From Minisyncoccota bacterium (lineage in GTDB: Bacteria > Patescibacteriota > Minisyncoccia > Phycocordibacterales > JABAAK01): a stretch of DNA of 64,000 nt. The DNA is taken from the NCBI GenBank assembly GCA_963668425.1, contig OY764332.1, positions 259,903 to 323,902 of the forward strand, in the 5' to 3' direction. Of the stretch, positions 7,217 to 28,632 are shown piece by piece. The notes beneath the pieces were generated by a model that saw nothing but the letters and a program-made list of their open reading frames with translations, had not been told where the DNA came from and did no database searches. The position numbers and the translations under genes were made by a program. Numbering within the stretch: position 1 is the first letter of the stretch; every line of letters begins with the position of its first letter.

Positions 7217-7311
7217 ACTGTGTTTATTGTACTACTGCAAAAATATAAAGAAAGAGATAATGCACATACTGTTCTTTGAGTAAGCAATCTCTATGAAGAA
7301 TGGCTCACCTT

Positions 7312-8523
7312 ACACACAAAGAAAATCATTTTTCCCATTGTTCTCTCGGAATGCCGGATTGTCTCACAATAGCGCGCATTGTTCCGACCAGAATATGTCT
7401 GTCTCCATGACTTGGCACCACAACTAAACCGAACTCTCTTTTGTACCCCTTATACATTGAAAATGACTTCCTCTTGTTTTGAGTGTATCTTTGGTGGTGG
7501 TGTACTGGTTTGTATATATGAAAAAAACGACCAACGTGGTTTGTTGGTCGTTTTTGGTAAGGTTCAGTTGTACTTTACTTTAAGATACTTTTGGCACCAT
7601 TTGTAACGGTTTGGAGCTCTTGCTCGTATGCCGCCGTCTCTGGTTGCTTCATGGACTCCCAGGTTTCCTTCCCTCTCAACATCCCAGTAATAAACGTGAA
7701 ACTCAGCGGCGTTTTCAAGCATGTCTGATTCAGTGTGTTCGCTCTTGTCAAGCGTACCGATCCAGTGTTTGTGCGGAATCTCTGCCAAGTCCTTCTCCCA
7801 CGCCGCCTGGTACTCTTTACCCTCAGGGGTTTTTTCCCAATCAAACAAACTATTGTCACCATGCATAATGGCAACTGCGTGTTGCCGTGCATGGGCGAGC
7901 TCGTGGATGAGGACAGGGTGATAAATTTCACCTTCTTCCTCAGGGAATGCATAGTAGACCCCAACCTCATGCGATCCATAAGTCCCAAAAGTCATTCCTT
8001 CCCCATGATCAACGAACGCAGGACCTATTACAAGAAACAGATCATGCGGGAGTGGCTCAGATTCTAGGATGGAGCGGACTGCATCTGGCCACCGTAGCCC
8101 TACTAGAATCATACCCGGGGCGTTTTGTGGTTGTTCTCGATTTTGATACTCAGCGTCAAAGACCTCGTTCGGTCTTAGTTGCTGAAGTTCGGTAGGACGA
8201 GAGCGATAGGCGATTACCTCTTTTGGTTCAAGGTATGCCCGCTGTACCCGGAGGTACATTTTGTCTCCTTTTACATTTGGAAAGTGGAAGTAGCCACCTT
8301 CGTCGGTAGTTACTTGTTCTTCTTTTCTTGGACCATGTGTTATGGTCACAAGAGCGTTCTGCACTGGTGCTATGTAGTCCCCGCCAACCCATTCGTCATT
8401 ACTAGCATCTGGAACCTTCATACACACCCGACCGACAAAGTCCTCGGGATTACTCTCTGGTGGTGCGTACTCTCTGTACGGACCGGGGAAATCAAGCACC
8501 CACGCTGACTGTGGCAGCCAGTC
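7312..8523. repeat. Right arm of the about 1.2-kb inverted repeat (partner 1..1229)
   Basis: See the left arm. Confidence 0.8.
7521..7558 (-). terminator. Rho-independent terminator downstream of the peptidase gene (minus strand)
   Basis: Hairpin cgaccaac...gttggtcg followed by a T-run on the minus strand. Counterpart of the 987..1021 terminator. Confidence 0.6.
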
Positions 8524-9168
8524 AGATGCCACAGTGCCGTTATAGTATCCGTGGGTGATCGGCTCTTCTACTAGACCTGGTAGCCCTATCGTATCGGACT
8601 GTGTTACCTGCAGTTTCTTTGGGTGATGGTAAAACTTTGTGAGCGTGTTACCATCAAGGTCTGCTGATAATTTGCCGACCATGATGGACACCGCTTTGTC
8701 TGGCATTACGTACCTACAAATGTAGTCGTCTGTGCCAGAACCTAATGGCTTTGCATAGCCATGGATCAATTTTTCTTTGGGCGAGGTAACCTTGAAGCGT
8801 TCCATCGGGCTACCTCTTTCTTTGTACCAAAGCACCGGTCTACCGCTACCCTCGCCTGTAACAATATGCTCCATTGGCTCAGAGAAAACGATCTTAATAA
8901 AAACTGTTTCTCCTGCTTCAGCCGATTGTATCTCCTTGGTGAGTTTCCAGTCACTGTAGTAGCCGACTGATATTACCCTCGGAGTACCTATCGCCACGTT
9001 CATTGGAGCACTTGGAGCGTTTTCTGGAGTTCTTAGAGAGCCCAGCAAACCAAGTGTTTCATTATCGTCCAATACCAGTCCGTCTGGCTCCTCACCACAA
9101 CCCATGAGCAGAGCAATGGTTAGCACTGCAATTGCAATGTTCGCCACATGTTTCAATACATGTTTCAA
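7564..9168 (-). CDS. Lipoprotein zinc metallopeptidase (HExxH) with a carboxypeptidase-regulatory-like domain, 534 aa
   Basis: Lipobox signal (ALLMGCGEE). HELAHARQH motif. Beta-sandwich TITHGPRKEEQVTTDEGGYFHFPNVKGDKMY resembles the CarboxypepD_reg-like fold. Confidence 0.7.
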   Translation of the reverse strand: MKHVLKHVANIAIAVLTIALLMGCGEEPDGLVLDDNETLGLLGSLRTPENAPSAPMNVAIGTPRVISVGYYSDWKLTKEIQSAEAGETVFIKIVFSEPMEHIVTGEGSGRPVLWYKERGSPMERFKVTSPKEKLIHGYAKPLGSGTDDYICRYVMPDKAVSIMVGKLSADLDGNTLTKFYHHPKKLQVTQSDTIGLPGLVEEPITHGYYNGTVASDWLPQSAWVLDFPGPYREYAPPESNPEDFVGRVCMKVPDASNDEWVGGDYIAPVQNALVTITHGPRKEEQVTTDEGGYFHFPNVKGDKMYLRVQRAYLEPKEVIAYRSRPTELQQLRPNEVFDAEYQNREQPQNAPGMILVGLRWPDAVRSILESEPLPHDLFLVIGPAFVDHGEGMTFGTYGSHEVGVYYAFPEEEGEIYHPVLIHELAHARQHAVAIMHGDNSLFDWEKTPEGKEYQAAWEKDLAEIPHKHWIGTLDKSEHTESDMLENAAEFHVYYWDVEREGNLGVHEATRDGGIRARAPNRYKWCQKYLKVKYN

Positions 9169-9728: not shown

Positions 9729-9970
9729 CTTGGACTATTGCTTGATGAGCAGCTGATGGAGGTGCCGTCAGTATCAATTAGAAAACACCATTGACTGATG
9801 CGATCAACACTAACTTCTCAAAATCTTCAACTGATCCTCAGATGCTTTTCTGATAACTCGCTTCATCATTCTTTTACGTTTTTTTGAACTCATATTTGCA
9901 AAATCTCTGGAAGCCTGCTCTGCAGGTGATATAGTTTCATTATTTTTATTTTTCCAGAAAAAAGAGAAAA

Positions 9971-10693
9971 TCATGATATTATACGCAGTATTTCTTCGCT
10001 ATCACTATACACTTTAGTGTACATCTTTTTTATATAGTCATCAACATTTTGTACATTAAACTCAAACTTCTCCTGCATCGCTTCGTTTCCTTCAGAAACT
10101 GTCTTCAAGACAAAATGAATCTTGATTTTTTCTTCAAATGTATTTTTAATTTCATTCACCACCTCCCGAGAACCGATAAACTGCCTGGCAAATGATTCCT
10201 TTGGTACTACTCTTCCTTCCACTTGTTCTCGTTTTTTTACAAATTTCCACGCACTCTTCGGTTCTTGATACACAAAAAACACTTCCACCCGGCACCCTCT
10301 TTTTAAAGATCGTTCTACATTACTTCTCGCTTTCTTAAAATTTGAAAATGTTGAATCTAACACAAAGTTATACCCCTTCTTGAAAATATGATCCAAGACC
10401 TTTTCCACTCCCAAGGATGCCGCTCCGTGATATTTCTCCGCATTATTCCCCGAGTATCCAGGTAACAACGACTTAATCACATCTTGGTCAATGTGAACAA
10501 AGGAGGTGTCAGAAATCTCTTCTATCAGACGTCTCGCTGTCTCAGTCTTTCCTGCACCTGGAGAACCAGACATAAACAACGCATTCTTTGTTTTCACTGA
10601 CTCACAATCCTTGCATACTTCTTCTATAATCTGATGAGCATTCTTTTTGACCCAATCCTTCAACGATTCTTCTGCTTGTTCCATGCTATCCAT
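9971..10693 (-). CDS. Zeta-toxin-like P-loop kinase (zeta toxin / AAA_33 superfamily). The true start is likely the Met at 10693; the 10786 start overlaps a peptidase-gene remnant
   Basis: Walker A motif FMSGSPGAGKTE near the N-terminus. Size and layout typical of zeta/PezT-type UNAG kinases. No epsilon-like antitoxin ORF nearby. Confidence 0.6.
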   Translation of the reverse strand: MDSMEQAEESLKDWVKKNAHQIIEEVCKDCESVKTKNALFMSGSPGAGKTETARRLIEEISDTSFVHIDQDVIKSLLPGYSGNNAEKYHGAASLGVEKVLDHIFKKGYNFVLDSTFSNFKKARSNVERSLKRGCRVEVFFVYQEPKSAWKFVKKREQVEGRVVPKESFARQFIGSREVVNEIKNTFEEKIKIHFVLKTVSEGNEAMQEKFEFNVQNVDDYIKKMYTKVYSDSEEILRIIS

Positions 10694-10803
10694 TATCCCA
10701 TACTCCTTATAACTCTCATACCATCTCGTGATCTGAATCAAACATGCTTGAAAACGCGGCTGAGTTTTGTGCCATGCATTGGACATTACAATGGAAAAAT
10801 AGT

Positions 10804-10930
10804 GCGCAAGGAATTTGTAAAAATACCCTTATTTCATAGGATATTTTGTCAAAATTCATTCCTTGTATATTGTAATTGACAAGGAATGCTACTTACTTGT
10901 ATATCGTAATATACAAGGAATTATTTTAGG
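10804..10930. promoter_or_regulatory. Conserved divergent promoter/operator cassette with the palindrome TTCCTTGTATA-N-TGACAAGGAA; copy 1, between the zeta-like kinase gene and Fic-1
   Basis: An about 130-bp stretch near-identical to 20677..20838. It contains the inverted repeat ttccttgtatattgtaattgacaaggaa plus a degenerate second copy. Confidence 0.55.
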
Positions 10931-11006
10931 TAAGGATATATTGCACTTTACAAAAAACAGATTTACGGCATTGTTTTAGTTTATATTGCGAGTTTTTGCC
11001 TAACAT

Positions 11007-11017
11007 TGTGATATAAT
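11007..11017 (+). promoter_or_regulatory. Extended -10 promoter element TGTGATATAAT upstream of Fic-1
   Basis: TGn plus TATAAT. The same element sits upstream of Fic-2 at 21035..21045. Confidence 0.4.
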
Positions 11018-11037
11018 ATTATTATGAGAAAAACATA

Positions 11038-12177
11038 GTGGGAGAACGCATATTTGCGTTTTTGGACATAATTGGATATAATTGGACATATATACCTATA
11101 TCCATATGTATGCAAGAAGATAGATTTATTAAACGAATCCCCATCACTTCTGAGATTATGCAAAAAATCTCTCGCATTGATGCTTTTAAGGGTTTTTGGG
11201 AGGGTGGACTGCGTTTGCATCCACGTGTTTTGACACAGCTGAAGAAGTGGGTTATCATCACCTCAACAGGTGCATCAACGCGTATTGAGGGGTCAAAAAT
11301 GAGCGATGCAGACGTTACAATGTTTCTACGTGGTTTACGTGTAAAGTCACCAAAAAATAGGGATGAGCAAGAGGTTGCGGGGTATGCTGACCTTGCCGCA
11401 AGAGTATTTGACAACTATACAATATTACAACTGACAGAAGGATATATTTTGCAGTTTCATAAGATTTTATTGCAGTTCTCAAAAAAAGATCAAAAGCATT
11501 TTGGGAAGTATAAAGCATCAGACAACATTGTCATTGCCCGCACTGATGATGGTGAGGAGAAGGTTCTTTTCAGACCAACTCAACCATACTTAGTAAAAAA
11601 AGAGATGGATGATGTGCTTGAGTGGACACGATCAACGCTTGCATCTGAAACACTGCACCCTATTCTTGTTATCTGTAACTTCATTTTTGAATTTCTTGCG
11701 ATTCACCCGTTTGTAGACGGTAATGGACGACTTTCTCGTATTTTAACAAATATGCTCCTGTTGCAGGCAGGATATGCTTATGTACCGTATGTTTCTTTAG
11801 AAGAAATTATTGAAAATCATCAGGTAGCATACTATAGGTCACTACGGGAAACACAAGTCAAGCATAAAACAGGGCATGAAGATATCGCTCCGTGGGTACA
11901 CTTTATGCTTGATATACTACTTGAACAATCTGAAAAAGCACAATCTGTTATGCAATCCGAGCATCCGGAGAAAATGCTATCAGAAAGCCAAACGACTATA
12001 TATACTCTGTTCACCGCCGACGAAGAGCTTGCCATTGCTGATATTGCTATGAAACTTCGTGATACTATTCCTCGGACAACTATAAAGCAAGCTGTGTTCC
12101 GCCTTATGCGACTTAATTTGTTGGAGCGAATCGGGAGCGGGAGAGGGACGCGATACCGTCGTATTATTCAACCATAG
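11038..12177 (+). CDS. Fic family protein (AMPylation-type Fic motif HPFVDGNGRLSR) with a C-terminal winged-helix region
   Basis: Canonical HPFx[DE]GNGR motif. N-terminal IEGS region as in the Fic_N domain. GTG start at 11038. A homologous ATG at 11024 is followed by a stop after 4 codons. Confidence 0.8.
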   Translation: MGERIFAFLDIIGYNWTYIPISICMQEDRFIKRIPITSEIMQKISRIDAFKGFWEGGLRLHPRVLTQLKKWVIITSTGASTRIEGSKMSDADVTMFLRGLRVKSPKNRDEQEVAGYADLAARVFDNYTILQLTEGYILQFHKILLQFSKKDQKHFGKYKASDNIVIARTDDGEEKVLFRPTQPYLVKKEMDDVLEWTRSTLASETLHPILVICNFIFEFLAIHPFVDGNGRLSRILTNMLLLQAGYAYVPYVSLEEIIENHQVAYYRSLRETQVKHKTGHEDIAPWVHFMLDILLEQSEKAQSVMQSEHPEKMLSESQTTIYTLFTADEELAIADIAMKLRDTIPRTTIKQAVFRLMRLNLLERIGSGRGTRYRRIIQP

Positions 12178-12384
12178 CACTTCCTCTTTTTTATGGTGTT
12201 GTTGTAGTGAGATACTTAAAAAGTGTCAGCTACCGTAAGTACTGTGCGAGGAATATATGGTGTACTTTAGAGATCTTTTCTGATGTATCTTTCTATATAT
12301 GCACCTGAACTTATGTAGTTTTGCTTGTTTGTGTTTTTTTGGCGCGGTACAAAGTAAAAGTAGCGGTGAAATCAATATGTTTAT

Positions 12385-13875
12385 TTACTCAGACACTATC
12401 ACTACCCCCCTTGCCTGCGGGTTGATGTGGTCGTGGTACTGCCACTCCCCTACTTCGTTAAACCGAAACGCATACACCGCACCGGTACCCATTGCCTCAC
12501 AAGCATCAAAAATCATCGCTCGTTCATCGGTGGCACATTTCATGATATTTGATCCGGGATACTGCTTGTGTGTTGGGTGAAGATTTGCTGCAGGCCAGAA
12601 CACCTGATCTTCGTTCCTCCACATTACCACCTGCCCGGGTTGTATAGACACTGTGTTTGGTTGGAACTGTCTCTCCCGATACGTAATAACCTCCGCATCA
12701 GACCCGATAGTGTCAGGAATCATGCCTCCTCTGGGAAATGCAAAAGACACTGCGCTATCTTTTGTTGACATCTCATCATGCGTATGCTCGGTTTCATCAT
12801 GGTGCTCACCACCTTCCTCCGCACCTCCAAACAAACCAGCAAAGAACGATTTGATGCCATCAAGCAATTTCTGCAACCATGATCTTGAGACATCATGTTT
12901 CTCATCTACCATTACCTCCTCAGACAGTGCCTTGACAGCGCTGTGATGATGCTCAATGCCGGAGCGTGCGTTGCGCACTGATTGCCGACACACTTCCTCA
13001 TACACCCCTGCACCGACACACTTATCAGCAATAGGAAACGACTCGTCGCCAAATCGATGTAATAGATACTTTCCATGGTTTTTGTAGCATTTCTCACGGT
13101 ACTGCTCCTCTATTGTGTTGCACGGAGCAGATGCATCATCGTCAATGAAGCCATCACCGCCACCAGACGCAATATACTCATTCACATTCTCCATAAACAC
13201 ACCATCCCAACAATGCGATTGAAACTCCGGGGGTAATGCGTCGCACACCGCAAGCGCAGGAGCGAGTACGTGGTTGTTGCGTTTCATAAACATATGCCCC
13301 ATTTGGTGGTAGCATGCCTCTTGCTCGGCAACATCGGCATCTGTGGTAGTGACACAAATGGTTTCCGCGAAAAAATTATCTGGCTCAACACCATCAGCAG
13401 TTGAGGAGAATGCCTCAAAGAAGCCATATGCACATCCGTAGTCAAAATCATTCCCACACAACCCAAACTGGTTCTCTCTGTCTGCAAGCAGTTGCTCTCC
13501 AAGCACACGCCCTATTCTCTGAGCGAGTGCATATGCATCAACATCAAATGCTTGCACAGACACCAAGTCAGCCAATACTGCCTTTGCAAACTTTGGACCA
13601 GATCCCGCTATCGCCGCATCAACAATATCTTCCATGCATTCCTCTACCACACCACCTTCGCAAAGAGCAAGATAGCATGCCTCCTGCTCACCCGATGAGA
13701 TCACATGACAAATATTTACCTCAGATGGCAAGTTGTCATGTTTTTCATCACCATGCGCAAACACCACATTTACAGAAGAGAGCATGCCAAGCAAAAAGAG
13801 AAGAAAGGCAGTGATAACAATAGTACGTGTTGCCATGTTAGTAGCAGTATATAGTAATACAGCATTCATACACAA
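12385..13875 (-). CDS. Secreted Cys/His-rich modular protein (one M module, a His/acidic linker, and a cupredoxin-like C-terminal domain), 496 aa
   Basis: Signal peptide (MATRTIVITAFLLFLLGMLSSVNVVFAHG). The M module (ACYLALCEGG...FGLCGNDFDYGCAYGFFEAF...CYHQMGHMF...GVFMENV...PCN) is shared with the two downstream genes. The C-terminal V-x-W-x-NED...HPTH...YHDH...GVVIV follows cupredoxin spacing. Confidence 0.6.
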   Translation of the reverse strand: MCMNAVLLYTATNMATRTIVITAFLLFLLGMLSSVNVVFAHGDEKHDNLPSEVNICHVISSGEQEACYLALCEGGVVEECMEDIVDAAIAGSGPKFAKAVLADLVSVQAFDVDAYALAQRIGRVLGEQLLADRENQFGLCGNDFDYGCAYGFFEAFSSTADGVEPDNFFAETICVTTTDADVAEQEACYHQMGHMFMKRNNHVLAPALAVCDALPPEFQSHCWDGVFMENVNEYIASGGGDGFIDDDASAPCNTIEEQYREKCYKNHGKYLLHRFGDESFPIADKCVGAGVYEEVCRQSVRNARSGIEHHHSAVKALSEEVMVDEKHDVSRSWLQKLLDGIKSFFAGLFGGAEEGGEHHDETEHTHDEMSTKDSAVSFAFPRGGMIPDTIGSDAEVITYRERQFQPNTVSIQPGQVVMWRNEDQVFWPAANLHPTHKQYPGSNIMKCATDERAMIFDACEAMGTGAVYAFRFNEVGEWQYHDHINPQARGVVIVSE

Positions 13876-13931
13876 ATATTATACAGAACATTTCCTTCCT
13901 ATACCCATCTATCCATAACTCCTTCTGCACT

Positions 13932-15179
13932 TTATTCAGAAACTACCACCACACCGGTCGCCCGTGGGTTGCTATGGTCGTGATAGCGCCACCGCCCAGG
14001 TTCAGTAAAGACAAATGAATACTCAGTGCCATAGGGTAACTCTTTGCATGCATCAAAAATACTTTCCTGTTCTGCTGTCCCACATTTTTTAATATCTGAC
14101 CCAGGATATGCTGCATGAGTTGGGTGGATGTTGGATGCTGGCCAAAACGACTCTTCAGTGTCTTCATTCACCCACGTTACTTCTTGCCCGACTGCTATGT
14201 GTATAACATCTGGCATATACTCCCCTCCTTGGTAGCGTATCACTGCGTTTTCAGTCTTCTGAACGGTAGAGTAAGGTGTCTGTGTAGTACCGACATCCGT
14301 AACAGATAACGAAACAGCTTTTGGTGTTTTGCGTTCCATACATTCTGACTGATATCGATCTGGTAATGTCCGGCAGAAATCAGGTAACCCATCTGTTGAG
14401 ATAACCTCTGTCGCCTGTGTCATAAGACGATCATAACAAATTTCTTCAAAAGAAGAATCCGAAGACAGCGCGCAAAATGCGACCGCGCCCGTCTCCTGTG
14501 ATGGATCCCAAAATAAATTATTCAATGCCCCCTCCAAACACCCATTTCTACCGGGTACATACGCTATACGCATACACACCTTCCTACTTTGCACTGGATC
14601 CAGCAGCATCTGACCGGACACCGTCCGCCCCATGCTATGAAAACAAGCAAACCGAAAATGCTCCGGTGCATCAGCACACGCGATACCAACTGCATCAAAA
14701 TCACCGAGCAATCGGTGCATATGATCGGTTTGTAGCCAATAACACTCATGCTTATACTTCTCCTTTACTGCATTACACGGATAGTGTGGGTCATCATTTA
14801 GATACTGCGTATAGTGGACACCACCTTCTGCTTGCTCATCTTGCACGATACCACCGACAACATTCTCCATGAACACGCCGGAATAACAGGATTTCTGATG
14901 ATACTGTTGACGAATTAAATCACACGCCTCCAGCGCATCATATATCTTATAGTCATACCACGCCATCAGCCCATGTCCAATACCGTGAATACACTGGTGC
15001 ATATGAAACCTATTCCCTGCCTCATCACCACAGAGTGTATGCAAACTGTCAATTAAGTCAGTAGTGCCATTTGCCGCAAAAAATGCCTCAGTTGCTCCGT
15101 GTCGGCATCCAGAGTGACACTCTATCCCACAACTCTTAAACGACTCACCACCGAACAAATCATACGCCCGCCGACCCAT
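13932..15179 (-). CDS. Secreted Cys/His-rich modular protein, paralog (M module plus cupredoxin-like domain). It probably starts at about 15349 with a frame disruption near 15180-15250
   Basis: Same M-module motifs (CIHGIGHG, GVFMENV, PCN) and the same C-terminal domain (TWVNEDTEESFWPASNIHPTH...RYHDHSNPRATGVVVVSE). The ORF 15122..15349 encodes a signal-peptide-like N-terminus (MGKDVRFAVFVLAIFCGAMA) in another frame. Confidence 0.55.
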   Translation of the reverse strand: MGRRAYDLFGGESFKSCGIECHSGCRHGATEAFFAANGTTDLIDSLHTLCGDEAGNRFHMHQCIHGIGHGLMAWYDYKIYDALEACDLIRQQYHQKSCYSGVFMENVVGGIVQDEQAEGGVHYTQYLNDDPHYPCNAVKEKYKHECYWLQTDHMHRLLGDFDAVGIACADAPEHFRFACFHSMGRTVSGQMLLDPVQSRKVCMRIAYVPGRNGCLEGALNNLFWDPSQETGAVAFCALSSDSSFEEICYDRLMTQATEVISTDGLPDFCRTLPDRYQSECMERKTPKAVSLSVTDVGTTQTPYSTVQKTENAVIRYQGGEYMPDVIHIAVGQEVTWVNEDTEESFWPASNIHPTHAAYPGSDIKKCGTAEQESIFDACKELPYGTEYSFVFTEPGRWRYHDHSNPRATGVVVVSE

Positions 15180-15437
15180 CTCATGCGCTCTGTTGTGGCA
15201 ATCAATCCCCTTTGAGTATTCAAGTCAGGGGTTAGTGCTGTAGTCGGCTTCTCCTGCCACCCGTCAAAACTAAACATTGCCATAGCACCACAGAATATAG
15301 CCAACACAAAAACAGCAAAACGGACATCTTTACCCATGTGGAGCAACATACTTCACCCCAAACAGCATTACTGCCTTAGATTTGACTTATCTGCATACAG
15401 ACATCTTGATACATCCCTTTTGGTATTTGACACCTAT

Positions 15438-18400
15438 CTATTTTTTAAACATGTTGATCAGGTATCTCACTACCCTGCTGAACAGATTGAGATGATCTTC
15501 ATACTCTTCCTCATTGATACGATTCACCTCATCGGTGCTTGCAGTCCATTCAGCCACAAACGTAACACTTTCTTCACCATTATGATATGGATGCAAGCAA
15601 TCATTATAATATATCTCCGGCACCTGATTGCAAAATTTGTACAGATCTGTCTCATCTTTCACCTTACCCCCGACATTCCTCCCGATGACCTTCCAGCATC
15701 TACTCCTATATCTTTCGTTCAATTTTCCGCAAAATTCCTTTGTGTTCTCTATCCCATAATAAGTAAAATTCTGATCAATTGCCGGTTCGTAGCATCGCAT
15801 ATGATATTCTTCGCTAAATTGATTACAAATGAAAATGGTTTTGTCTATGAGGTTTCCTGAAATACTGTCATCCAACAACACATCCTGGGTACTTGCATAG
15901 ATAGACTGTGCGCCAAGGTTATATACACAGTCCTGCACATAGCCGTCTTCAACCTTGTTGCACATATCAATCATTTTTTTTAAATCCCATTGTAGTGCAT
16001 ACAACCAATACGATACTTGAGATTGATAGCAGAGTGTTTTATACCGCTCATTAAGATTGTTACATGGAGCAAAAGGGTCTTCAGTGCGAAACCCATTATC
16101 AATTTCATCATTTGTTTTCCTGCCTTGTGCACCACTTACATTTTCCATAAATACTCCACTATAGCAATCCCATTTTCGATGCTCCCTCTCCAACAAATCA
16201 CACTGTTCTAATGGCTTATACAGTCCATAACTGTAATTCATTACCAATGCGTGACCTGATCCGTGATAGCATGCAGTTTTTGCATATGGTGGAGTGTCCG
16301 GCATATTACTACAGGTATTTTCTATGAACTCGGCGGGGCTAGGAACAACAGCAAGACCGGCTTCAAAAAATCCATGATGGCAACCGTAGTCAAAATCAAT
16401 TGGACACTTGAGAAATGCTTCTCCGGTTAACCCAAATTTCTCTCCTGTTGATCTTCCTATAGTGTGTGTTATTTGATGTGCAGATGACGGCTCAAACAAA
16501 AACTCTCCCTCCCATGTCATGTCATGTAGTGCCCTGATGGACTCTTTCGGACCTGATCCAAAAACTAGTTGGGTAACAATTTCTTCTGCACAGAGATATC
16601 CTGGCTCATATTCACACAACGATGCGTAGCAACCTGCTCTCCCCACATCCAAAGCTGCACACTCCTGCGCACTATCAAATAAATTTTTGTTAAACTTTTC
16701 TTCCTGCAGGTGTTGCTGCCAATCCTGTGCAGATGCCGGTAAAGTAACTGCGCTTACCGCACTCTTAACTGCATCTAAAATACTTTGTGTGATTTTTTTA
16801 AATAAAGAAACCAGGTTTCTCTCCTTCTCTATTTTTGTTACTGGTAATTCTCCATATACATCTTCACCATGCTGAATATCTGCACTTACGTTATTATCAA
16901 GTCGATATCCAAACAAACATTCATTTCTATACTCATCCGGCACATCTACACACTTTTCTGTTTTCTCCTCTTCATGCACAACCATATCCTGTAACCTTCT
17001 ACCCATCTCTCGATAACAATTTCGTTCATACTTTTTATCAATTTTTACACAAAACTCAGATGTTTTTTTTGCTCCGTAGAATATGAAGGTTTGATTTATT
17101 GCCCAGAGATAACATGTCTCACGGTACTTTTCTGGAAAATGATTGCATAGATATATTGTTTTATCTATAAAGTTTCCTTCTATGTGTGGCATCAGTTTTT
17201 CTTGAATCTCTTTATACATCCCATACCCTCCAACGCCATGTGCACATGATTCTGCCTCTTCACCGGCGTCTAGACATGTATCAACGACACCTTGAATATC
17301 ATAGTCAAAATACCATGCTAAATATGGCAAATGTGTTTCATAACATACATCTCGATATCCGTACCCCTCTCCATCCTCCACCAATGTGTCGCATGGAGCG
17401 TGTGGATTATTTTCATCAAAACTGTTATTTTCTGTATATATCTCTTGTATCCTTCCTGATACAAAAGCGTCTACGTTTTCCATGGTCACGCCGGAGAAAC
17501 ATGTAAATGGCTGTGGTAACGCCTTGCAAATATCCAGTGCCTCATAGAGATCATAGCTTGTGTTCATGAGTATGCCGTGACCAGCACCATGATAACAATT
17601 CACCTTATCAAGTGACGGCTGATCGGGCAAGGTTTCACATATCTGTTTTACTGCCTCAGCAGGTGATTGTGCCTCTACAAGCGCAACCTCAAGAAACCCA
17701 TGGTGGCAACCTGAATCAAATGATGTTGGACATCTCAGAAATGCTTCTCCTGAACCATTGAACCTTTTTGCTGTTTTTCTCCCAACAACATGTGCAAGTC
17801 CATGCCCCTCATCTGCCGAAGAGAATGAAAAGGGGGTTGATGGTATAATTTCTCTGAGTATCTGCATACCTAACTCCGGACCATTGTGTTCAACTGCTGT
17901 TTCTACTATTTTCTCTGCACACAAATATCCAGGTTCATATTCACACAGAGAAGCGTAGCATTCCGCACGACCATCCTGCTGGTTGATGCACCGCTCAATT
18001 GCGAAAAAACTGGTATCAGGTGCATCAACAGAATCCTTGACACTTTGTGCAGAAACAGGTCCAGCAAATAGAGCGGAGAGGTTTCTGAAAAGGGTAACAA
18101 AAAAATCTTTAACCTTTATGAGTAAGTAGTCATTCTGATCAACATCATCTGCCATCGCCTTATTTACAGCAGTGGTGGCACTTTCCTCAAAATCTGAAAT
18201 AACAACCTCAGCATGCCTTGTATACGGATCTAAACAATCCTGCTGATATATGGTAGGGATCTCGGCACATGCTGACTGTTTCACCTCCTCACTCCCTAAA
18301 TGATTTAAATATGAGCCGGCTTGTTTGAAACATGCTGCTCTGTGTCTCATTTCAATGCTACCACAAAACGTGCTAACTCGATGCATGGAGGGGTAATCAA

Positions 18401-19436
18401 AGTTCAACAACGCACCAACTAGCGGAATATAGCACGATGCCTTGTAGCCATCTGGGAATTCACTACACAAAAAAATAACTTTTTCCATGTATGGACGATC
18501 GGTAATACCAAAGCTATCAAAAACAATATTGGTTCGCTGTGCATTCTGCAACATTAAGCCGATACCAGAGAGACAATCAGCAGTATGATTTCCCGCCTGT
18601 AAACATATCGCGACCAATCCATCAAATGAAGTGGTATGCTCATGCATCAGATACCCATAGTGCTCCATATAGCATGTCGGTCTGAAATCTGCATCAAGCG
18701 CGTTGCATGGATAGAGAGGGTCGTCCTTGCGAAAGTTATTGCTCTTCTCTTCCCATGCTCTCGTTGGCCACGCATTTTCCATGAACACACCACTCAGGCA
18801 CACCGTGTGCCACCGATCAGGAACAGCGGTACAGGCATCTATACTGGCATCAAGATTATAATTTTCATTCATGAGGAACACATGTCCAGCGCCGTGATAA
18901 CAGTACGACTTCTCTTTATCTGAAGTCGTTTCTGACGGCATGTCTTCACATATACTGATTGCGACAGTCACTGGGTCATCAACCTTCACTAACGTATCTT
19001 CAAAAAACCCGTGATAACAGCCATCATTAAAATCATGTGGGCATCGTAGAAAGTTCTCCCCCGAAGAGCCAAATACTCGTGAAGTCGTCCGCCCAATAAC
19101 ATGCGACAGTAAGTGCCCGTCGGTAGTAATGGCAAATGCCGGGCTCGCCATAATATCATGTAGCACTTCCATTGCTCGTGCAGGGCCGGCAACCTCAACC
19201 GCCACATCCGACAACTCCTCCGCGCACAAATATCCAGGTTCATAGGTACACAAATCCGCATAGCATGTGTCGTTCCAAGTATCCTGCAAACACACTTCAA
19301 TTCCTTCGAGCATCGCTTCTCGTGCATCACCACTGACCTCCTCTGTCGCCGAAACATTCTGCATAGTAAGTATCACAAGAAGTAAAAAAATGGGCAGAAT
19401 AAAACCAAAAAACAAGAATATTTTGCGAACAAGCAT
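15438..19436 (-). CDS. Giant secreted Cys/His-rich protein with three tandem M modules and no cupredoxin-like domain, 1332 aa
   Basis: Signal/TM N-terminus. Three about 400-aa repeats, each with CYA(D/S)LC(T/E)YEPGYLCAE, GH-x-L-x-H-x-x-GR, GE(A/N)FL(K/R)CP-x-(D/S)FD-x-GC-x-HGF(F/L)E, CYHG(A/S)GH, GVFMEN and PCN motifs. Confidence 0.65.
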   Translation of the reverse strand: MLVRKIFLFFGFILPIFLLLVILTMQNVSATEEVSGDAREAMLEGIEVCLQDTWNDTCYADLCTYEPGYLCAEELSDVAVEVAGPARAMEVLHDIMASPAFAITTDGHLLSHVIGRTTSRVFGSSGENFLRCPHDFNDGCYHGFFEDTLVKVDDPVTVAISICEDMPSETTSDKEKSYCYHGAGHVFLMNENYNLDASIDACTAVPDRWHTVCLSGVFMENAWPTRAWEEKSNNFRKDDPLYPCNALDADFRPTCYMEHYGYLMHEHTTSFDGLVAICLQAGNHTADCLSGIGLMLQNAQRTNIVFDSFGITDRPYMEKVIFLCSEFPDGYKASCYIPLVGALLNFDYPSMHRVSTFCGSIEMRHRAACFKQAGSYLNHLGSEEVKQSACAEIPTIYQQDCLDPYTRHAEVVISDFEESATTAVNKAMADDVDQNDYLLIKVKDFFVTLFRNLSALFAGPVSAQSVKDSVDAPDTSFFAIERCINQQDGRAECYASLCEYEPGYLCAEKIVETAVEHNGPELGMQILREIIPSTPFSFSSADEGHGLAHVVGRKTAKRFNGSGEAFLRCPTSFDSGCHHGFLEVALVEAQSPAEAVKQICETLPDQPSLDKVNCYHGAGHGILMNTSYDLYEALDICKALPQPFTCFSGVTMENVDAFVSGRIQEIYTENNSFDENNPHAPCDTLVEDGEGYGYRDVCYETHLPYLAWYFDYDIQGVVDTCLDAGEEAESCAHGVGGYGMYKEIQEKLMPHIEGNFIDKTIYLCNHFPEKYRETCYLWAINQTFIFYGAKKTSEFCVKIDKKYERNCYREMGRRLQDMVVHEEEKTEKCVDVPDEYRNECLFGYRLDNNVSADIQHGEDVYGELPVTKIEKERNLVSLFKKITQSILDAVKSAVSAVTLPASAQDWQQHLQEEKFNKNLFDSAQECAALDVGRAGCYASLCEYEPGYLCAEEIVTQLVFGSGPKESIRALHDMTWEGEFLFEPSSAHQITHTIGRSTGEKFGLTGEAFLKCPIDFDYGCHHGFFEAGLAVVPSPAEFIENTCSNMPDTPPYAKTACYHGSGHALVMNYSYGLYKPLEQCDLLEREHRKWDCYSGVFMENVSGAQGRKTNDEIDNGFRTEDPFAPCNNLNERYKTLCYQSQVSYWLYALQWDLKKMIDMCNKVEDGYVQDCVYNLGAQSIYASTQDVLLDDSISGNLIDKTIFICNQFSEEYHMRCYEPAIDQNFTYYGIENTKEFCGKLNERYRSRCWKVIGRNVGGKVKDETDLYKFCNQVPEIYYNDCLHPYHNGEESVTFVAEWTASTDEVNRINEEEYEDHLNLFSRVVRYLINMFKK

Positions 19437-19494: not shown

Positions 19495-19553
19495 TGGCAC
19501 CTGTTTTCATTGACCTGAACTATAAGCTGGATTCTGTACTCGCTTTACGTGGG
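19495..19553 (-). repeat. Partial duplicate of the RNase P RNA 3' end plus terminator flank (about 60 nt); left direct repeat of a 3.0-kb islet
   Basis: tggcacctgttttcattgacctgaactataagctggattctgtactcgctttacgtggg is about 92% identical to 22495..22554, exactly 3000 bp away. Confidence 0.65.
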
Positions 19554-19766
19554 CAGAGACGTACCTCAACAAACAGTACGACTGATCTTTAACTCTTACA
19601 TAAAACGATCAACAGCATGTTGGTCGTTTTATTTTGCTACATAGCGCCTTGCAAATAAAGCGTAAAATACCCCGTAGAACAAGAGTTACTGATTGCAGCG
19701 TGAATAACTTATTGACAAAAGTAAAGATCTTGGGATACACTATTCTTATGAAAGAGGTTCCGGGCC

Positions 19767-20483
19767 CTAGAGGACATCCGGGCCTCTTTCGCTTTGCAAT
19801 GATACCGCTGGTATAGAAACACATAAGCGACTCATATCACAGACACTTTTAGCGCGTTGAATAATATCAAGCATCTGTATTGGCAAGCAGTATCTTGAAT
19901 CTACTTGCACAACATGCGTGGGGAGAATTTTTGGTAAATTAATTTGATGCCTGTGTGAAAATATATCTTCTTTAGTGCGTGAAAGAGTTTTCTCAGTAAG
20001 ATATTTTCTCAAATTATCTGAATCTTTTTTGTTTTCAGCATAGCGGTCTATAATCAACTCTATCGGCTTTCCGAATGTAAATAATAATTCTTTTGCTGAT
20101 ATATACTCCAATGCTTTCTTTAAAACAAAGTTCCTGAACCAAAGAGGGTTTCTTTGGTACTTACCATCTCTGAGATATGGACCGATATATTTTGTTTTAT
20201 CTATCATCATTTCATAAAATTGCACATCGTTCAGATATGGTATTTTTTCTACAAGGTTTTTTAAATTTTTTCCACTGAGTTTTTTCAATTCTTTTTTATG
20301 ACCGTTAAAAAATTTAAACCCTGCAATGAGGTATTCTATATCTCCAACCCCTTGTTCAGTCGCTATGCCTATATTTATAGTAAAATGCTGACTTGATGAC
20401 CGATGTGCAACTGGATCACCGGCATCACCGCTCTCATCTATAAACACAAAAAGTTTTTTGGCTTTACTGTAATCCATATTCAT
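19767..20483 (-). CDS. DUF3800-like protein (N-terminal FIDESGD motif), 238 aa
   Basis: KLFVFIDESGDAGD near the N-terminus matches the DUF3800 (PF12686) signature as recalled from memory. No other recognizable domain. Confidence 0.55.
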   Translation of the reverse strand: MNMDYSKAKKLFVFIDESGDAGDPVAHRSSSQHFTINIGIATEQGVGDIEYLIAGFKFFNGHKKELKKLSGKNLKNLVEKIPYLNDVQFYEMMIDKTKYIGPYLRDGKYQRNPLWFRNFVLKKALEYISAKELLFTFGKPIELIIDRYAENKKDSDNLRKYLTEKTLSRTKEDIFSHRHQINLPKILPTHVVQVDSRYCLPIQMLDIIQRAKSVCDMSRLCVSIPAVSLQSERGPDVL

Positions 20484-20676
20484 TCATTATACTTTGCTCG
20501 TTTTTTTGTGACACGCACTAGTATACCTCCTGAAACTTAATACTTTTTGTTTGAACAGTAGGAGTGCGTTATTCCGAAAGATTGCCATATTATACCCGCT
20601 TTTTGTCAAAAAAGCGGGTACAAAATTTGTAATACATAAAAAAACGGGTATACCATGTGTACTGTAGAAGACAAAT

Positions 20677-20838
20677 GCGCAAGGAATTTGTAAAAAACTC
20701 CTTATTTTATAAGATATTTTACCAAAATTTATTCCTTGTATACTGTAATTGACAAGGAATGCTATTTCCTTGTATATTGCAACTGACAAGGAATACTACT
20801 TCCTTGTATAGTGCAATTGACAAGGAATTATTTTAGGC
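20677..20838. promoter_or_regulatory. Divergent promoter/operator cassette, copy 2 (three TTCCTTGTATA-N-TGACAAGGAA palindromes), between the DUF3800 gene and Fic-2
   Basis: Near-identical to 10804..10930 but with an expanded palindrome array at about 20732, 20766 and 20800. Confidence 0.55.
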
Positions 20839-20888
20839 AGAGATCTATTATACTTTACAAAAAGTAGATATGTTGTATTATCTTGGTT

Positions 20889-21010
20889 TATATTATTAGT
20901 TTTGCTTAAAAGTTGCAATATGAAAATTTATATTATTAGTTTTGCTTAAAAGTTGCAATATGGAAATTTATATTATTAGTTTTGCTTAAAAGTTGCAACA
21001 TGGAAATGTA
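20889..21010. repeat. Three tandem 40-bp repeats (tattattagttttgcttaaaagttgcaatatg(a/g)aaattta)
   Basis: Direct repeats with the block tattattagt at 20891, 20931 and 20971. Confidence 0.8.
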
Positions 21011-21050
21011 TATTGCAAGTATTTATCTAAAATTGTGATATAATAGTACT

Positions 21051-22220
21051 ATGATAAAAACAAGAGAAAAGGGATATGGTGATTTTACGGCAGGAATACA
21101 TAAAAAACACTTTTATAACAAAGAGTATGCATATGAGAGTTTTGTTCCACATTCTGTGAACAGAGAGTATGCTTTTCAAGATTCCAGAATACTTACCCTC
21201 CTTGAAGAGGCGACTAGACATCTTGCGGAATTAAACGCATATTCTGATTTGGTTCCTGATGTTGATTTCTTTATTCAAATGCATGTACGAAATGAGGCGG
21301 TGAAATCAAGTAAAATTGAAGGCACACATACAGACATTAGTGAAGCTGTTCTCTCAGAAAAAGAGATTGAGCCAGAGAAAAGAAATGATTGGCAGGAGGT
21401 TCAAAATTATATAACCGCAATGAATTATGGAATAAAAAAGTTGGAGAAACTGCCTTTGTGTATGCGTCTGTTGTGTGAGACGCATGCAAAGCTGATGCAC
21501 GGTGTTAGAGGGGAGAACAAACAGCCGGGAGAGGTGCGATTAAAGCAGAACTGGATTGGTGGTGTCAGTATTAAAACAGCGTCTTTTATACCACCCCATC
21601 AGGACGATGTCCCCGAACTGTTGAAAGATTTAGAGAAGTTTTGGAATGATAAAAATAATCTTATCATGCCGGATCTGATAAAAGTTGCTATTTCTCATTA
21701 CCAATTTGAAACAATTCATCCGTTTAATGATGGTAACGGCAGGATAGGTCGTATATTAATAGTACTCCATCTTATGCAGATGGGTATATTAAGCAAGCCA
21801 ACGCTTTACCTATCTGATTTCTTTGACAAGCACAAGAGTGCCTACTATGATGCGCTGATGTTTGTAGGAGAGAGAGATGACCTTGATCAATGGATACTCT
21901 TTTTTCTGTCGGGCGTTGTTGAAACTGCAAAAAAAGGAAGAAGTATTTTTCAAGACATTATTGAGTTACGGAGTCAATATGAACAAAAATTGCTTAACCT
22001 TGGCGGTCGCGCGAAAACAGCGAATAAATTACTTCAGTTTTCCTTCTCTCATCCTGCATTTGATACTGTGACAGTATCAGATTACCTTAATATATCACGC
22101 AGTTCAGCAAACATACTTGTGAAACAGATGTCAAGCATGGGCATATTAAAAGAATCAACTGGTTTTTCAAGGAACAGAATCTTTACATTACATCAATATC
22201 TTGACCTGTTTAACACGTAA
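21051..22220 (+). CDS. Fic family protein (HPFNDGNGRIGR) with a C-terminal winged helix. The ATG is only 5 nt after the TGTGATATAAT -10 element, so the mRNA may be leaderless
   Basis: Canonical Fic motif. IEGTHT in the N-terminal domain. Promoter element at 21035..21045. Confidence 0.8.
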   Translation: MIKTREKGYGDFTAGIHKKHFYNKEYAYESFVPHSVNREYAFQDSRILTLLEEATRHLAELNAYSDLVPDVDFFIQMHVRNEAVKSSKIEGTHTDISEAVLSEKEIEPEKRNDWQEVQNYITAMNYGIKKLEKLPLCMRLLCETHAKLMHGVRGENKQPGEVRLKQNWIGGVSIKTASFIPPHQDDVPELLKDLEKFWNDKNNLIMPDLIKVAISHYQFETIHPFNDGNGRIGRILIVLHLMQMGILSKPTLYLSDFFDKHKSAYYDALMFVGERDDLDQWILFFLSGVVETAKKGRSIFQDIIELRSQYEQKLLNLGGRAKTANKLLQFSFSHPAFDTVTVSDYLNISRSSANILVKQMSSMGILKESTGFSRNRIFTLHQYLDLFNT

Positions 22221-22277
22221 TATATCTCTGTATATACACCGGCAATGCATGAGGATAATGTATTGTATTGAAAAGAT

Positions 22278-22450
22278 GTGAGGGTGTTTTTGGACATAAT
22301 TGGATACAATTGGACATATATACCTATATCCATATGTAGGCAAGAAGGTGGATTTATTAAACGAACCTTACTTGTGCTTCTGAGATTGTGTAAAATTTTT
22401 GCACTGATGCTTTCAAAGGGCTTGTATGCTGGCGCTTTTGTTTGTTGTGG
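22278..22450 (+). pseudogene. Degraded copy of a Fic-1-type 5' end (95-bp direct-repeat/palindrome element plus diverged N-terminal coding sequence)
   Basis: tttttggacataattggata(c/t)aattggacatatatacctatatccatatgta...gatttattaaacgaa matches 11040..11130. The downstream sequence still aligns loosely to the Fic-1 codons, then stops. Confidence 0.45.
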
Positions 22451-22476
22451 CAAGGTTTAGATTGTGTCCTTATGTG

Positions 22477-22505
22477 AAAACAAGGTGCCGATTTGGCACC
22501 TTGTT
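22477..22505 (-). terminator. Terminator hairpin (caaggtgcc...ggcaccttg plus U-run) at the 3' end of RNase P RNA
   Basis: Perfect 9-bp stem followed by TTTTC on the minus strand. Confidence 0.6.
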
Positions 22506-22855
22506 TTCATTGACCTGAACTATAAGCCGGATTCTGTACCCACTTTACGTGGGTGGTAATCATTTATCTTGACACGCCGTTGCCGGCGTGTTCTTTGCGG
22601 CACTCCGTTGCATTGCTGCCTCGGCACGACCTTGCACTCAGGTAGGAATTTAGCCGTTTCACCACCGCGTTGCCACGGTATTCACCTCAGAGAGGTGCCC
22701 TCACTTCTCAGATTGGGCGTCACTGCTCGCATCCCTCGGTTTTCACCAGACGGGCGTTACCCGCTACCCTGCTCCACCAAAGAGTGGGAGTGTCCGGACT
22801 TTCCTCTCGTTGCTTGTTACAACGAGCGATTACCTGTTCGGGTAGTTATAGTATA
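22506..22855 (-). ncRNA. rnpB: RNase P RNA (bacterial type A), about 350 nt
   Basis: The minus strand carries the universally conserved P4 strands: AGGAAAGUCCGGAC near the 5' end and ACAGAAUCCGGCUUAUAGUUCAGGUCA at the 3' end. P1 pairing ACUAUAA/UUAUAGU. ORFs 22569..23440(+) on the opposite strand are spurious. Confidence 0.85.
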
Positions 22856-22914
22856 TCTTTTTACCTCACTATGTAAAGTTTTACTTGTTTGTGTTTTTTT
22901 TGGCGTGGTTATCC

Positions 22915-23403
22915 TTACTTTTCTTGCAGTAGGAGTGTGTCGTTGATAGCTATTCTGCCGTTTGTATACCCTGCCGGCACCTCTAGTACATACCGTGCGG
23001 GAGTGGGCGAGCGAAACGGCTTTGGATATGTTTCTGGTGTTACTGTTTGTTCAATGTGTACTACTCTCATTGCCACGTCTATCCAAACGATATCTATCGG
23101 AAACTGCATATCTTTCATCCACATTGAATGTTTGCCGTCGGTGTTAAATATAAATAACATTCCTTTCCCCTGCTTAAGTGATTTTCTGTGTGAGAGTCCG
23201 ATTTTTTGCTGTTGTGGTGTTTCTGCTATCTCAACTTGTAGTACTGTGTTACCTACTGTCAGTGTCCTTTCTTGTAGCCCGCTGTTTTGCAGTGGGTTTG
23301 GTTGTATGGTGTGTTCTTTTTGCTGTTGTAGCGCAATGCCGATTCCTACGAGCAGTATAATGCTACCAGTAATGAACAGCATGTTACTCTTTTTCTTTAT
23401 CAT
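22915..23403 (-). CDS. DUF192 (COG1430) family protein, signal-anchored
   Basis: Motifs GMLFIF, MWMKDMQFPIDIVWID and YVLEVPAG are typical of DUF192. Confidence 0.6.
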   Translation of the reverse strand: MIKKKSNMLFITGSIILLVGIGIALQQQKEHTIQPNPLQNSGLQERTLTVGNTVLQVEIAETPQQQKIGLSHRKSLKQGKGMLFIFNTDGKHSMWMKDMQFPIDIVWIDVAMRVVHIEQTVTPETYPKPFRSPTPARYVLEVPAGYTNGRIAINDTLLLQEK

Positions 23404-23813: not shown

Positions 23814-24035
23814 ATATTTTTATTATATCACTAGAACCTCCCCTCTACGTTCTTATGTTTTTGCATAATTCTGGTTGGTGAGTATACCGTAATGTGGTGT
23901 CAAGGGATAGTCGCCAAATATTTAAACGGACTGACTTGAATTATAAAGGTAGCAGTGGAAAACAGCAAACAGAGTATGACGACTATATTACATATCTCCG
24001 TGATACTATTGACTAATACTCTGCCTCGTAACCAG

Positions 24036-28320: not shown

Positions 28321-28632
28321 CTAATGGGACTTGTAGTATCTCCCCCCTGTCCTTGCCTCCTGGCGCTTCTGGCGTAACAGCAACAACTGAAATGCGTAGA
28401 TTCGGTTGCTAATAGATGTCTTTTCTGACTCAATCTCATACGGTGTCTTTCCCATATCTAACTCAACAGCCACAAGTAGCGACTGCAATCTGGCTATTTC
28501 CGCCTCCAAGTCAGTAATGACATACCTGGCGCTGTTCTTTTCAGCAATTGTATTTGTCTTGACTGTTGTAACACCACAGCCAGAAACCAAAATGACGATT
28601 AGCACTGCCAATGGCAGAAAAATGTACCGCAT
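28321..28632 (-). CDS. Small lipoprotein (likely start MRYIFLPLAVLIVILVSGCG)
   Basis: Lipobox LVSGC after a hydrophobic h-region. No other homology recognized. Confidence 0.4.
   Translation of the reverse strand: MRYIFLPLAVLIVILVSGCGVTTVKTNTIAEKNSARYVITDLEAEIARLQSLLVAVELDMGKTPYEIESEKTSISNRIYAFQLLLLRQKRQEARTGGRYYKSH

Follow-up and report, generated by a model that had tools for sequence, protein, structure and literature searches.

The stretch of DNA analysed here (the window) comprises 64,000 nucleotides of a Minisyncoccota bacterium (contig OY764332.1 of assembly GCA_963668425.1). Its subject is the gene for RNase P RNA, rnpB, the 3' end of which is present a second time 3 kb away, beyond a small group of predicted toxin and defence genes. 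The functional rnpB, the single rnpB call in the window, occupies 22507-22845 on the minus strand. It specifies a bacterial type-A RNase P RNA and matches Rfam family RF00010 over the full model (positions 1-367) with 128.1 bits against a gathering score of 100. The gene is 98.5% identical to that of a sister strain and 86-92% identical to those of other Kaiserbacteria. In a consensus scan, TTTACA-16-TATACT (22850-22877, minus strand) was recognized as a promoter-like site immediately preceding the 5' end of the RNA. All relatives share the junction between this promoter side and the DUF192 gene (22915-23403). At the other end lies the terminator hairpin (22475-22509, minus strand; inverted repeat I11), the arms of which (22475-22489 and 22495-22509) are 15 nt long and 100% complementary. 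In alignments, both arms are longer by one base pair (AAGG/CCTT) than in any of the relatives.

A preliminary description of this DNA, made from the letters alone, had reported that the rnpB tail and part of its terminator are repeated in direct orientation 3000 bp away, and this was confirmed. The ungapped direct repeat is 52 nt long (19502-19553 and 22502-22553), with 94% identity and a spacing of exactly 3000. When one 1-nt indel is allowed, the repeat extends over 19495-19553 and 22494-22553, with 56 of 60 columns identical (93%) and a blastn E value of about 1e-18 to 1e-20. It spans the last 47 nt of rnpB and 12-13 nt of the rnpB-proximal (5') terminator arm, which is the arm at 22495-22509 on the plus strand. 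The gene-proximal copy (22494-22553, minus strand) thus consists of the end of the working gene and its proximal terminator arm, and the distal copy (19495-19553, minus strand) is an rnpB pseudo-tail, also found in the sister strain at the corresponding position (10931-10989 of L005). No third tail copy exists within the 64-kb window. In the alignments, similarity breaks off sharply at both ends of the 59-60 nt, and hence the distal copy does not belong to a longer duplicated block. Membership in a larger segmental duplication, which the preliminary description had named as speaking against an insertion, therefore does not apply to the tail copy itself.

The few differences between the two copies are informative. 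In RNA sense, AAAAC-AGGTGCC is found in 8 of 8 relatives and in the distal copy. In its place, the working rnpB of both window and sister strain has AAAACAAGGTGCC...GGCACCTTGTTTT, which adds a base pair that is compensated in both hairpin arms. The distal copy carries CCAGC in place of CCGGC (a G-to-A change) within the conserved ACAGAAUCCGGCUUA segment, and CCGGC is present in every functional gene. Between these positions lies a stretch of 24 nt, CTTATAGTTCAGGTCAATGAAAAC, that is identical in both copies. To judge from the terminator differences, the ancestral sequence 3' of CTTATAGTTCAGGTCAATGAAAAC is that of the distal copy, and the working gene is new there; on the 5' side the reverse holds. 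This distribution is consistent with the hybrid pattern expected if the tail and terminator had been replaced by incoming DNA. The distal copy stops at GGTGCCA, without the terminator loop or second arm, and is followed by the upstream region of a gene for a protein of 1332 aa. Both tail copies recur in the sister strain, where their flanks and diagnostic substitutions are unchanged and their distance is only 1751 bp.

The 3.0-kb stretch between the copies, here called the islet, has a G+C fraction of 0.35, compared with 0.42 in the core and 0.44 in neighbouring island genes. It was described as holding a DUF3800 gene, an operator cassette, 40-bp repeats, a Fic gene (Fic-2) and a 5' fragment of another Fic gene, and Pfam, repeat analysis and an 82% match of the fragment to the intact Fic-1 gene of the window all bear this out. 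It was also said to lack an integrase; indeed, no recombinase domain was detected in any open reading frame (ORF) of the islet, nor in any of positions 1-22500, and tblastn found no match to a Xer-like gene in the 64 kb. The identity profile of window against sister strain gave no indication of a younger age for the islet than for the core.

Nearest to the distal tail copy is the DUF3800 gene (19767-20483, minus strand; 238 aa; Pfam PF12686, 36.2 bits against a threshold of 21). Its stop codon lies only 213 nt from the tail copy, and a hairpin with 15-nt arms, 93% complementary and followed by a T-run (19600-19632, minus strand; I13), is its likely terminator, one that a stricter terminator scan did not detect. 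The protein contains the invariant FxDESGD motif and is 99% identical in the sister strain. An AlphaFold model (predicted local distance difference test score 82, predicted template modelling score 0.82) gave RNase HII/H2A structures as best matches in the PDB (Foldseek E about 1e-4, template modelling scores 0.45-0.52). The modelled protein therefore resembles an RNase HII-like fold, nuclease-like rather than recombinase-like. The possibility that it is a recombinase was considered and rejected, since RNase HII, and neither DDE transposases nor RuvC, is nearest in fold; another genome contains a 53%-identical homologue, away from rnpB and without flanking repeats. Upstream of the gene is a 63-nt element (20590-20652) with an 18-nt palindrome (ATATTATACCCGCTTTTT / AAAAAGCGGGTACAAAAT; inverted repeat I7), of which the sister-strain island contains two further tandem copies with 94-95% matches (28482-28614 of the joined L005 and L012 contig). 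Rfam at a permissive threshold detected no DUF3800-associated RNA motif and no other family across the islet.

The other half of the islet is devoted to Fic-2. Three 34-nt tandem units (20732-20833, plus strand; repeat families D2 and I2) form a putative operator-promoter cassette, each unit having an 8-nt inverted repeat TTCCTTGT..ACAAGGAA that overlaps promoter-like hexamers (11/12 and 10/12 in the promoter scan). Three to four 40-nt tandem repeats follow (20872-21031, plus strand; family D1), and then TGTGATATAAT, an extended -10 element, before Fic-2. The latter (21051-22220, plus strand) encodes a protein of 389 aa with the Pfam domains Fic_N and Fic, of the SoFic type in the AMP transferase family. 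It matches the PADLOC SoFic model PDLC03963 with an E value of 8.3e-117 over profile positions 5-359 of 361, and the solved SoFic chains with a phmmer E value of about 1e-34 (124 bits, residues 17-384). Fic proteins are characterized by a catalytic motif HxFx(D/E)GNGRxxR and an inhibitory motif (S/T)xxxE(G/N). The Fic-2 translation holds both, as HPFNDGNGRIGR and SSKIEG. The SoFic-like C-terminal region and the sharing of the cassette by both Fic loci of the window suggest that Fic-2 is probably autoregulated through the 34-nt palindromic units. Beside the rnpB terminator lies a truncated Fic-1-like pseudogene fragment of about the first 50 codons (22286-22419, plus strand). Its 134 nt share 82% identity with the 5' part of the Fic-1 coding region (11058-11192); the fragment contains a stop codon in the sister strain and a 60-aa ORF without a Pfam match in the window. 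As predicted from sequence and model, the cargo is a toxin/defence pair, a SoFic-type Fic protein and an RNase HII-like DUF3800 protein. No close relatives of Fic-2 or of the DUF3800 protein were found on viral contigs in IMG/VR.

Comparison was made with genomes of Candidatus Kaiserbacteria/Paceibacterota. A scan of the genome collection with TopA gave only 2 relatives, at 89% identity, and protein look-ups added more. The sister strain (L005 and L012; European Nucleotide Archive (ENA) ERZ21861969 ctg19195l, 45.8 kb) is an independent assembly and the sole close relative compared; its TopA is 99.4% identical to that of the window and its DNA about 97%. TopA identity is about 92% in L007, L008, L011 and L077, and about 88-89% in L001, L002 and L009, in which murJ comes directly after rnpB. 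Exact look-ups of the DUF192 and Fic-2 proteins of the window returned no recorded match, and a degenerate rnpB-tail pattern applied to Joint Genome Institute (JGI) metagenomes in search of a closer strain yielded just 2 loci, both of the L002 type. In IMG/VR, a 30-nt tail pattern of this lineage gave no match, and neither collection returned an attP-like match to the tail.

Upstream of rnpB, the gene order rnpB-DUF192-msrB-ABC-F-topA is kept in all relatives. A two-gene module of a SocA_Panacea domain protein and a 130-aa partner is located between the ABC-F gene and msrB in L005, L007, L008 and L011, and is absent at window positions 23876-23915 and from L009, L077, L001 and L002. The downstream side is variable. 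In six lineages (L001, L002/3/4, L008, L009/10, L077), murJ-lepA starts roughly 70-230 nt past the rnpB terminator; murJ is preceded by an upstream box, GTGGTATACTAAC. No part of window positions 1-22494 is present in these six lineages, and the window itself lacks murJ. The sister strain has a 21-kb island behind rnpB, and the usual order murJ-lepA-exonuclease-xer-S15-NYN-PNPase resumes 21.3 kb after the gene, so that the extra DNA is the whole rnpB-murJ interval and not, as the preliminary description had it, a 3.0-kb insertion unit. Precomputed Pfam assignments show no recombinase-domain gene in this interval, and no further rnpB tail copy exists at its murJ end. The search for an integrase that the description had proposed was likewise negative in both the window island and the sister-strain island; the Xer homologue beyond lepA is common to every relative. 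The variable rnpB-murJ region is therefore at least 21 kb long and recombinase-free.

Other relatives have been rearranged at the same point. In L007 and L013 (ENA ERZ25072384 ctg341572), the block murJ-lepA-exonuclease-xer is inverted relative to six other relatives, the breakpoints being situated immediately behind the rnpB terminator and in front of the S15 gene. L007 also has, between DUF192 and rnpB, a 61%-identical homologue of a 415-aa island gene of the window. The contig of L011 ends just past rnpB. The inversion, the 21-kb island and the L007 homologue next to rnpB identify the rnpB flank as a site of recurrent rearrangement in this clade.

Relatives lacking the islet, which the preliminary description had asked for, were found in the sense that rnpB stands directly before murJ in six genomes. 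An empty site for the 3-kb unit was not, and only a segment consisting of Fic-2 and 63 nt (21042-22283, plus strand) is polymorphic. This segment is missing from the sister strain and was most likely deleted there. According to its junctions, the -10 box lies on one side of Fic-2, and on the other the ribosome-binding region that belongs to the Fic-1-like fragment. At a paralogous locus of the window (10803-12177, plus strand), an operator cassette (10803-11035) precedes the intact Fic-1 (11038-12177). This cassette matches 20676-21062, the 34-nt units of the islet being homologous to 10803-10996 upstream of Fic-1, and the locus retains, as a scar, a Fic-2-like start, ATGAGAAAAACA and then TAG. 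The simplest reading of these junctions is an ancestral operon of cassette, Fic-2 and Fic-1 from which Fic-2 would have been deleted twice independently.

The duplication appears to have included rnpB. Downstream of Fic-1, a relic of a second rnpB copy (12303-12348, minus strand) comprises 9 nt identical to the rnpB tail and, collinear with it, 24-37 nt of the rnpB promoter region at 12312-12348. At the same place, the sister strain (L005, 16704-16832) has 129 nt, 96% identical, that cover the rnpB promoter together with ~75 nt from the start of the RNA. The rnpB relic, the duplicated cassette and the Fic 5' end together imply that a block of cassette, Fic-2, Fic-1, rnpB and promoter was once present twice. 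The remnants indicate reciprocal decay, the 12-kb copy having kept Fic-1 and lost rnpB, and the 22-kb copy having kept rnpB and lost most of Fic-1. The islet can thus not be regarded as an intact 3.0-kb insert, as its operator cassette and Fic fragment belong to one copy of a segmental duplication that includes rnpB, the other copy being 10803-12348. In the reconstructed ancestral block, only about 125 nt separate the Fic-1 stop codon from the rnpB tail. An attempt to derive the tail copy, the relic of the rnpB head and the duplicated Fic sequences parsimoniously from a single duplication event did not succeed. The 129-nt relic of the sister strain lies 40 nt upstream of a gene for a 1475-aa protein in the same orientation, and may represent the capture of the strong rnpB promoter by that gene. 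Just past the relic, window and sister strain are no longer collinear, and homologous island segments recur further on in rearranged order.

Among the possible origins of the tail repeat, we tentatively favour a decayed site-specific insertion scar at the rnpB 3' end, made by a recombinase that acted in trans or was lost, and later remodelled. The rnpB gene would originally have ended in the sequence now at 19495-19553, a 59-nt copy that would have been displaced and have remained behind upon insertion of a small toxin/defence cassette at the end of the gene. The ancestral cassette would have contained the DUF3800 gene, the operator-promoter cassette, the SoFic-type Fic-2 and a full Fic-1, and the incoming DNA would have brought its own last ~25-50 nt of rnpB and a complete terminator, so that the RNase P RNA stayed intact. 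Recombination of the site-specific, tyrosine-integrase type is the most likely origin in this scheme, with a crossover somewhere within the 24-nt CTTATAGTTCAGGTCAATGAAAAC, and the recombinase would have worked in trans or disappeared early. The present structure would then be a fixed, immobile scar at the head of the variable rnpB-murJ region. As for the order of events, we infer that remodelling came later: the block of operator cassette, Fic-2, Fic-1, rnpB and promoter would have been duplicated, the 10.8-12.3 kb copy losing its rnpB, Fic-1 would have been truncated beside rnpB, and Fic-2 would have been lost in the sister strain.

The proposal of integrase-type insertion at rnpB, already made in the preliminary description, finds partial support in the genuine 3'-end copy, the AT-rich cargo and the hybrid pattern. 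The repeat corresponds exactly to the 3' end of the gene plus a few bases, in direct orientation and with no flanking similarity. The mobile or defence type of the cargo and its AT-rich composition support insertion, and the six Kaiserbacteria with rnpB directly before murJ represent the empty state. The integrase, the empty site of the unit and the far-end repeat did not materialize, and these count against a site-specific insertion together with several other observations. Neither the islet, nor the 22 kb of island that the window covers, nor the entire 21-kb sister-strain island has an integrase. None of the compared genomes offers an empty site that matches the 3-kb unit precisely, and the one close relative bears the same scar, that is, the duplicated tail without an insertion polymorphism that the preliminary description had itself listed as contrary evidence. 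The tail repeat is present at both ends of the 3.0-kb stretch, though it is absent from the far (murJ) end of the actual 21-kb extra DNA. The hybrid pattern depends on just 2 informative positions, and the gaps of about 125 nt and 213 nt leave no room for an integrase at the ancestral stage. The distal copy is not continued by the native terminator loop, second arm or murJ, so an earlier insertion or deletion must be assumed. Finally, the second rnpB relic, derived from the 5' end, implies that pieces of rnpB have also been copied here by processes unrelated to attachment (att) sites.

An alternative that dispenses with an integrase altogether is one-sided homologous import, which we consider unlikely, if the strongest of the competing explanations. 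DNA of a relative carrying DUF192, rnpB and the Fic/DUF3800 genes would have recombined homologously in or upstream of rnpB, and its far end would have been joined illegitimately within the recipient's tail. The donor rnpB and terminator would now be in use, and the last 59 nt of the recipient gene would be stranded downstream. Homology-facilitated illegitimate recombination occurs in naturally transformable bacteria. Such an event accounts for the lack of a recombinase, for the foreign-type terminator on the working gene with the ancestral type on the stranded copy, and for the fact that the stranded copy runs into pre-existing island DNA and not into murJ. It requires, however, a donor with the cassette behind rnpB, and none was found; the 53%-identical DUF3800 homologue is located elsewhere and IMG/VR contains no relatives. 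Moreover, the body of rnpB bears no foreign signs, with its 98.5% identity to the sister strain and a hairpin loop, GTAAA, common to both copies, and CCAGC would have to be a later mutation.

Purely local segmental duplication followed by decay is also improbable, and ranks next. The tail copy would be the remnant of a duplicated rnpB block, the cassette would have arrived or moved independently, and the terminator would have changed in place. That the island duplicates rnpB segments is evident from the relics of 129 nt and 24-37 nt, and the operator cassette and Fic 5' end are duplicated as well; other large repeats and arrays of paralogues are present, and the L007 inversion breakpoint falls right after rnpB. 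What argues against a local origin is the restriction of tail similarity to 59-60 nt that coincide with the 3' end of the gene. Along the rnpB direction, the order is full gene, tail, head, unlike the product of one simple tandem event, and two coordinated indels in the working terminator would be needed.

A broader proposal, which we regard as doubtful, is that the rnpB 3' end constitutes an undescribed att site in Paceibacteria, at which recombinase-less defence cassettes would be inserted in trans, seeding the variable region, with pieces of rnpB being copied along. The insertion scar itself finds weak support in IMG/VR, which was scanned with a conserved 18-nt motif of the rnpB tail; 63 contigs matched. 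An apparent full rnpB is carried by 44 of the 63, as judged by a simple local motif test, and a few have only 25-60 nt of the tail. In 2 of these last contigs, rnpB-tail fragments are found 100-170 nt from a tyrosine integrase: in L073, the integrase is at 539-1735 and the tail at 1833-1864, and in L069 they are at 2691-3698 and 3858-3885. These cases weakly suggest, by position, that the rnpB 3' end may serve as an attachment site elsewhere. Their bearing on the insertion scar is reduced by the tens of chance hits that, by a rough estimate, an 18-nt motif is expected to produce in a collection of the size of IMG/VR, and by the absence of any Rfam match at E <= 0.001 for the L069 and L073 tails. 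Another candidate, L032, was dropped because it has a full rnpB with the integrase on its 5' side. At each end of a 46-kb IMG/VR contig (L021 and L043) stand the final ~100 nt of an rnpB; like L073 and L069, it may represent an rnpB-targeting element of other bacteria. The papers searched contained no report of rnpB as an integration target.

That the 3.0-kb stretch is a discrete, still mobilisable satellite without an integrase, moved in trans between 59-nt att sites, is very unlikely. Direct repeats of the target 3' end do flank AT-rich cargo, but one end of the unit is a truncated pseudogene, and the distance of 3000 or 1751 bp in two strains 97% identical arises from internal deletion and not from presence or absence of the whole unit. 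There is also no helper integrase within 64 kb of the window or 42 kb of the sister-strain contig, save the Xer homologue beyond lepA, and searches of IMG/VR and JGI metagenomes found no copy of the unit elsewhere. An assembly artefact is scarcely credible: genomes of the Candidate Phyla Radiation (CPR) are usually known from metagenome assembly, and the L011 contig breaks just after rnpB, but the independent assembly ERZ21861969 ctg19195l shows the same tail copy, flanks and diagnostic substitutions.

The remainder of the island contains further genes and repeats. Between the two rnpB relics of the variable island lie three paralogous genes for cysteine-rich proteins of 496, 415 and 1332 aa (12385-19436, minus strand), of which the sister strain lacks the one for 415 aa (13932-15179). 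They belong to a cysteine-rich, internally repetitive family without Pfam domains (496, 415, 1332, 1549 and 534 aa) that is found at 12385-19436 and 2567-9168. The 1549-aa gene is flanked by a 1.25-kb inverted repeat with 88% identity (6-1249 and 7292-8527) and contains long tandem repeats, e.g., 2412-3482 and 4769-5769. A zeta-toxin gene (9810-10786; Pfam E 7e-40) is arranged back to back with the Fic-1 operator cassette, and a 54-aa ORF that overlaps its start is possibly an epsilon-like antitoxin. Zeta and Fic-1 are absent from the sister strain at the position of 9810-10786. An ORF of 128 aa (1762-2148), also within the island, has a retropepsin-like aspartyl protease domain (Pfam Asp_protease_2, E 1e-10). 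Beside it is a 34-aa remnant (1285-1386) of an M78 peptidase/helix-turn-helix gene, which borders murJ in the sister strain. In the conserved part of the window, Rfam identified nine tRNA genes over 26 kb (36428-62663).

If the site-specific reading is true, rnpB joins the tRNA, tmRNA and 6S RNA genes as an anchor for acquired DNA. The setting would be an ultra-small CPR genome, a group in which mobile elements and defence are poorly charted, and island-mapping software would gain an RNA gene to check. As it stands, the locus provides an example of hot-spot decay, with a scar, a reciprocally degraded Fic/rnpB block and the strain-level loss of a SoFic-type gene, and it adds no new mechanism.

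The two cargo genes can be compared with known systems. Fic-2 resembles the single-gene anti-phage defence SoFic (PDLC03963; 3EQX, 3ZCN) in its full-length match, its catalytic and N-terminal inhibitory motifs, and its SoFic-aligned C-terminal region. It differs from the solved SoFic proteins in scoring only 124 bits against them, in its CPR host, in its multi-copy operator-promoter repeats and in its DUF3800 neighbour, and it is known here from its sequence. DUF3800 proteins, which are RNase H-like, have been tied to mobile elements, defence loci, Cas12a2/a3 loci and eleven nearby non-coding RNA motifs (PMC5737381, PMC10910872, PMC13594972). The present protein agrees with them as a Pfam member with an invariant DESGD, a predicted fold closest to RNase HII and a location in a variable island beside a structured RNA gene. 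Unlike them, it is a stand-alone protein of 238 aa without a tetratricopeptide repeat domain, and no Rfam DUF3800 RNA motif is present.

The known class nearest to the locus consists of the integrative elements (genomic islands and prophages) that have been mapped by Islander/TIGER at the 3' ends of tRNA, tmRNA and ssrS genes, the 13 ssrS cases constituting a new RNA target (PMC7192596). As in islands at tRNA, tmRNA and 6S RNA (ssrS) genes, a partial direct repeat of the 3' end of an RNA gene bounds compositionally distinct, probably foreign DNA in the 3.0-kb stretch of the present locus, the gene may be kept intact by sequence from the insert side, and the site is a hot spot with a larger variable region. 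Unlike those islands, the target is rnpB, no integrase is present, one end is a truncated gene, the far end at 21 kb has no repeat, and the repeat-bounded unit shows no polymorphism of presence and absence. Since the integrase, the repeat at both ends and the empty site for the unit were each found in part or not at all, the locus is not classified as an integrase-mediated island. Parallels also exist with decayed or tandem arrays of RNA-gene islands, which share degenerate internal att-like repeats, loss of the integrase and toxin or defence cargo. The relic of the rnpB 5' end and promoter, along with the duplicated Fic cassette, sets the locus apart from ordinary island arrays, as the target gene itself has been duplicated. 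The locus is tentatively placed as most likely derived from an integrase-mediated RNA-gene island.

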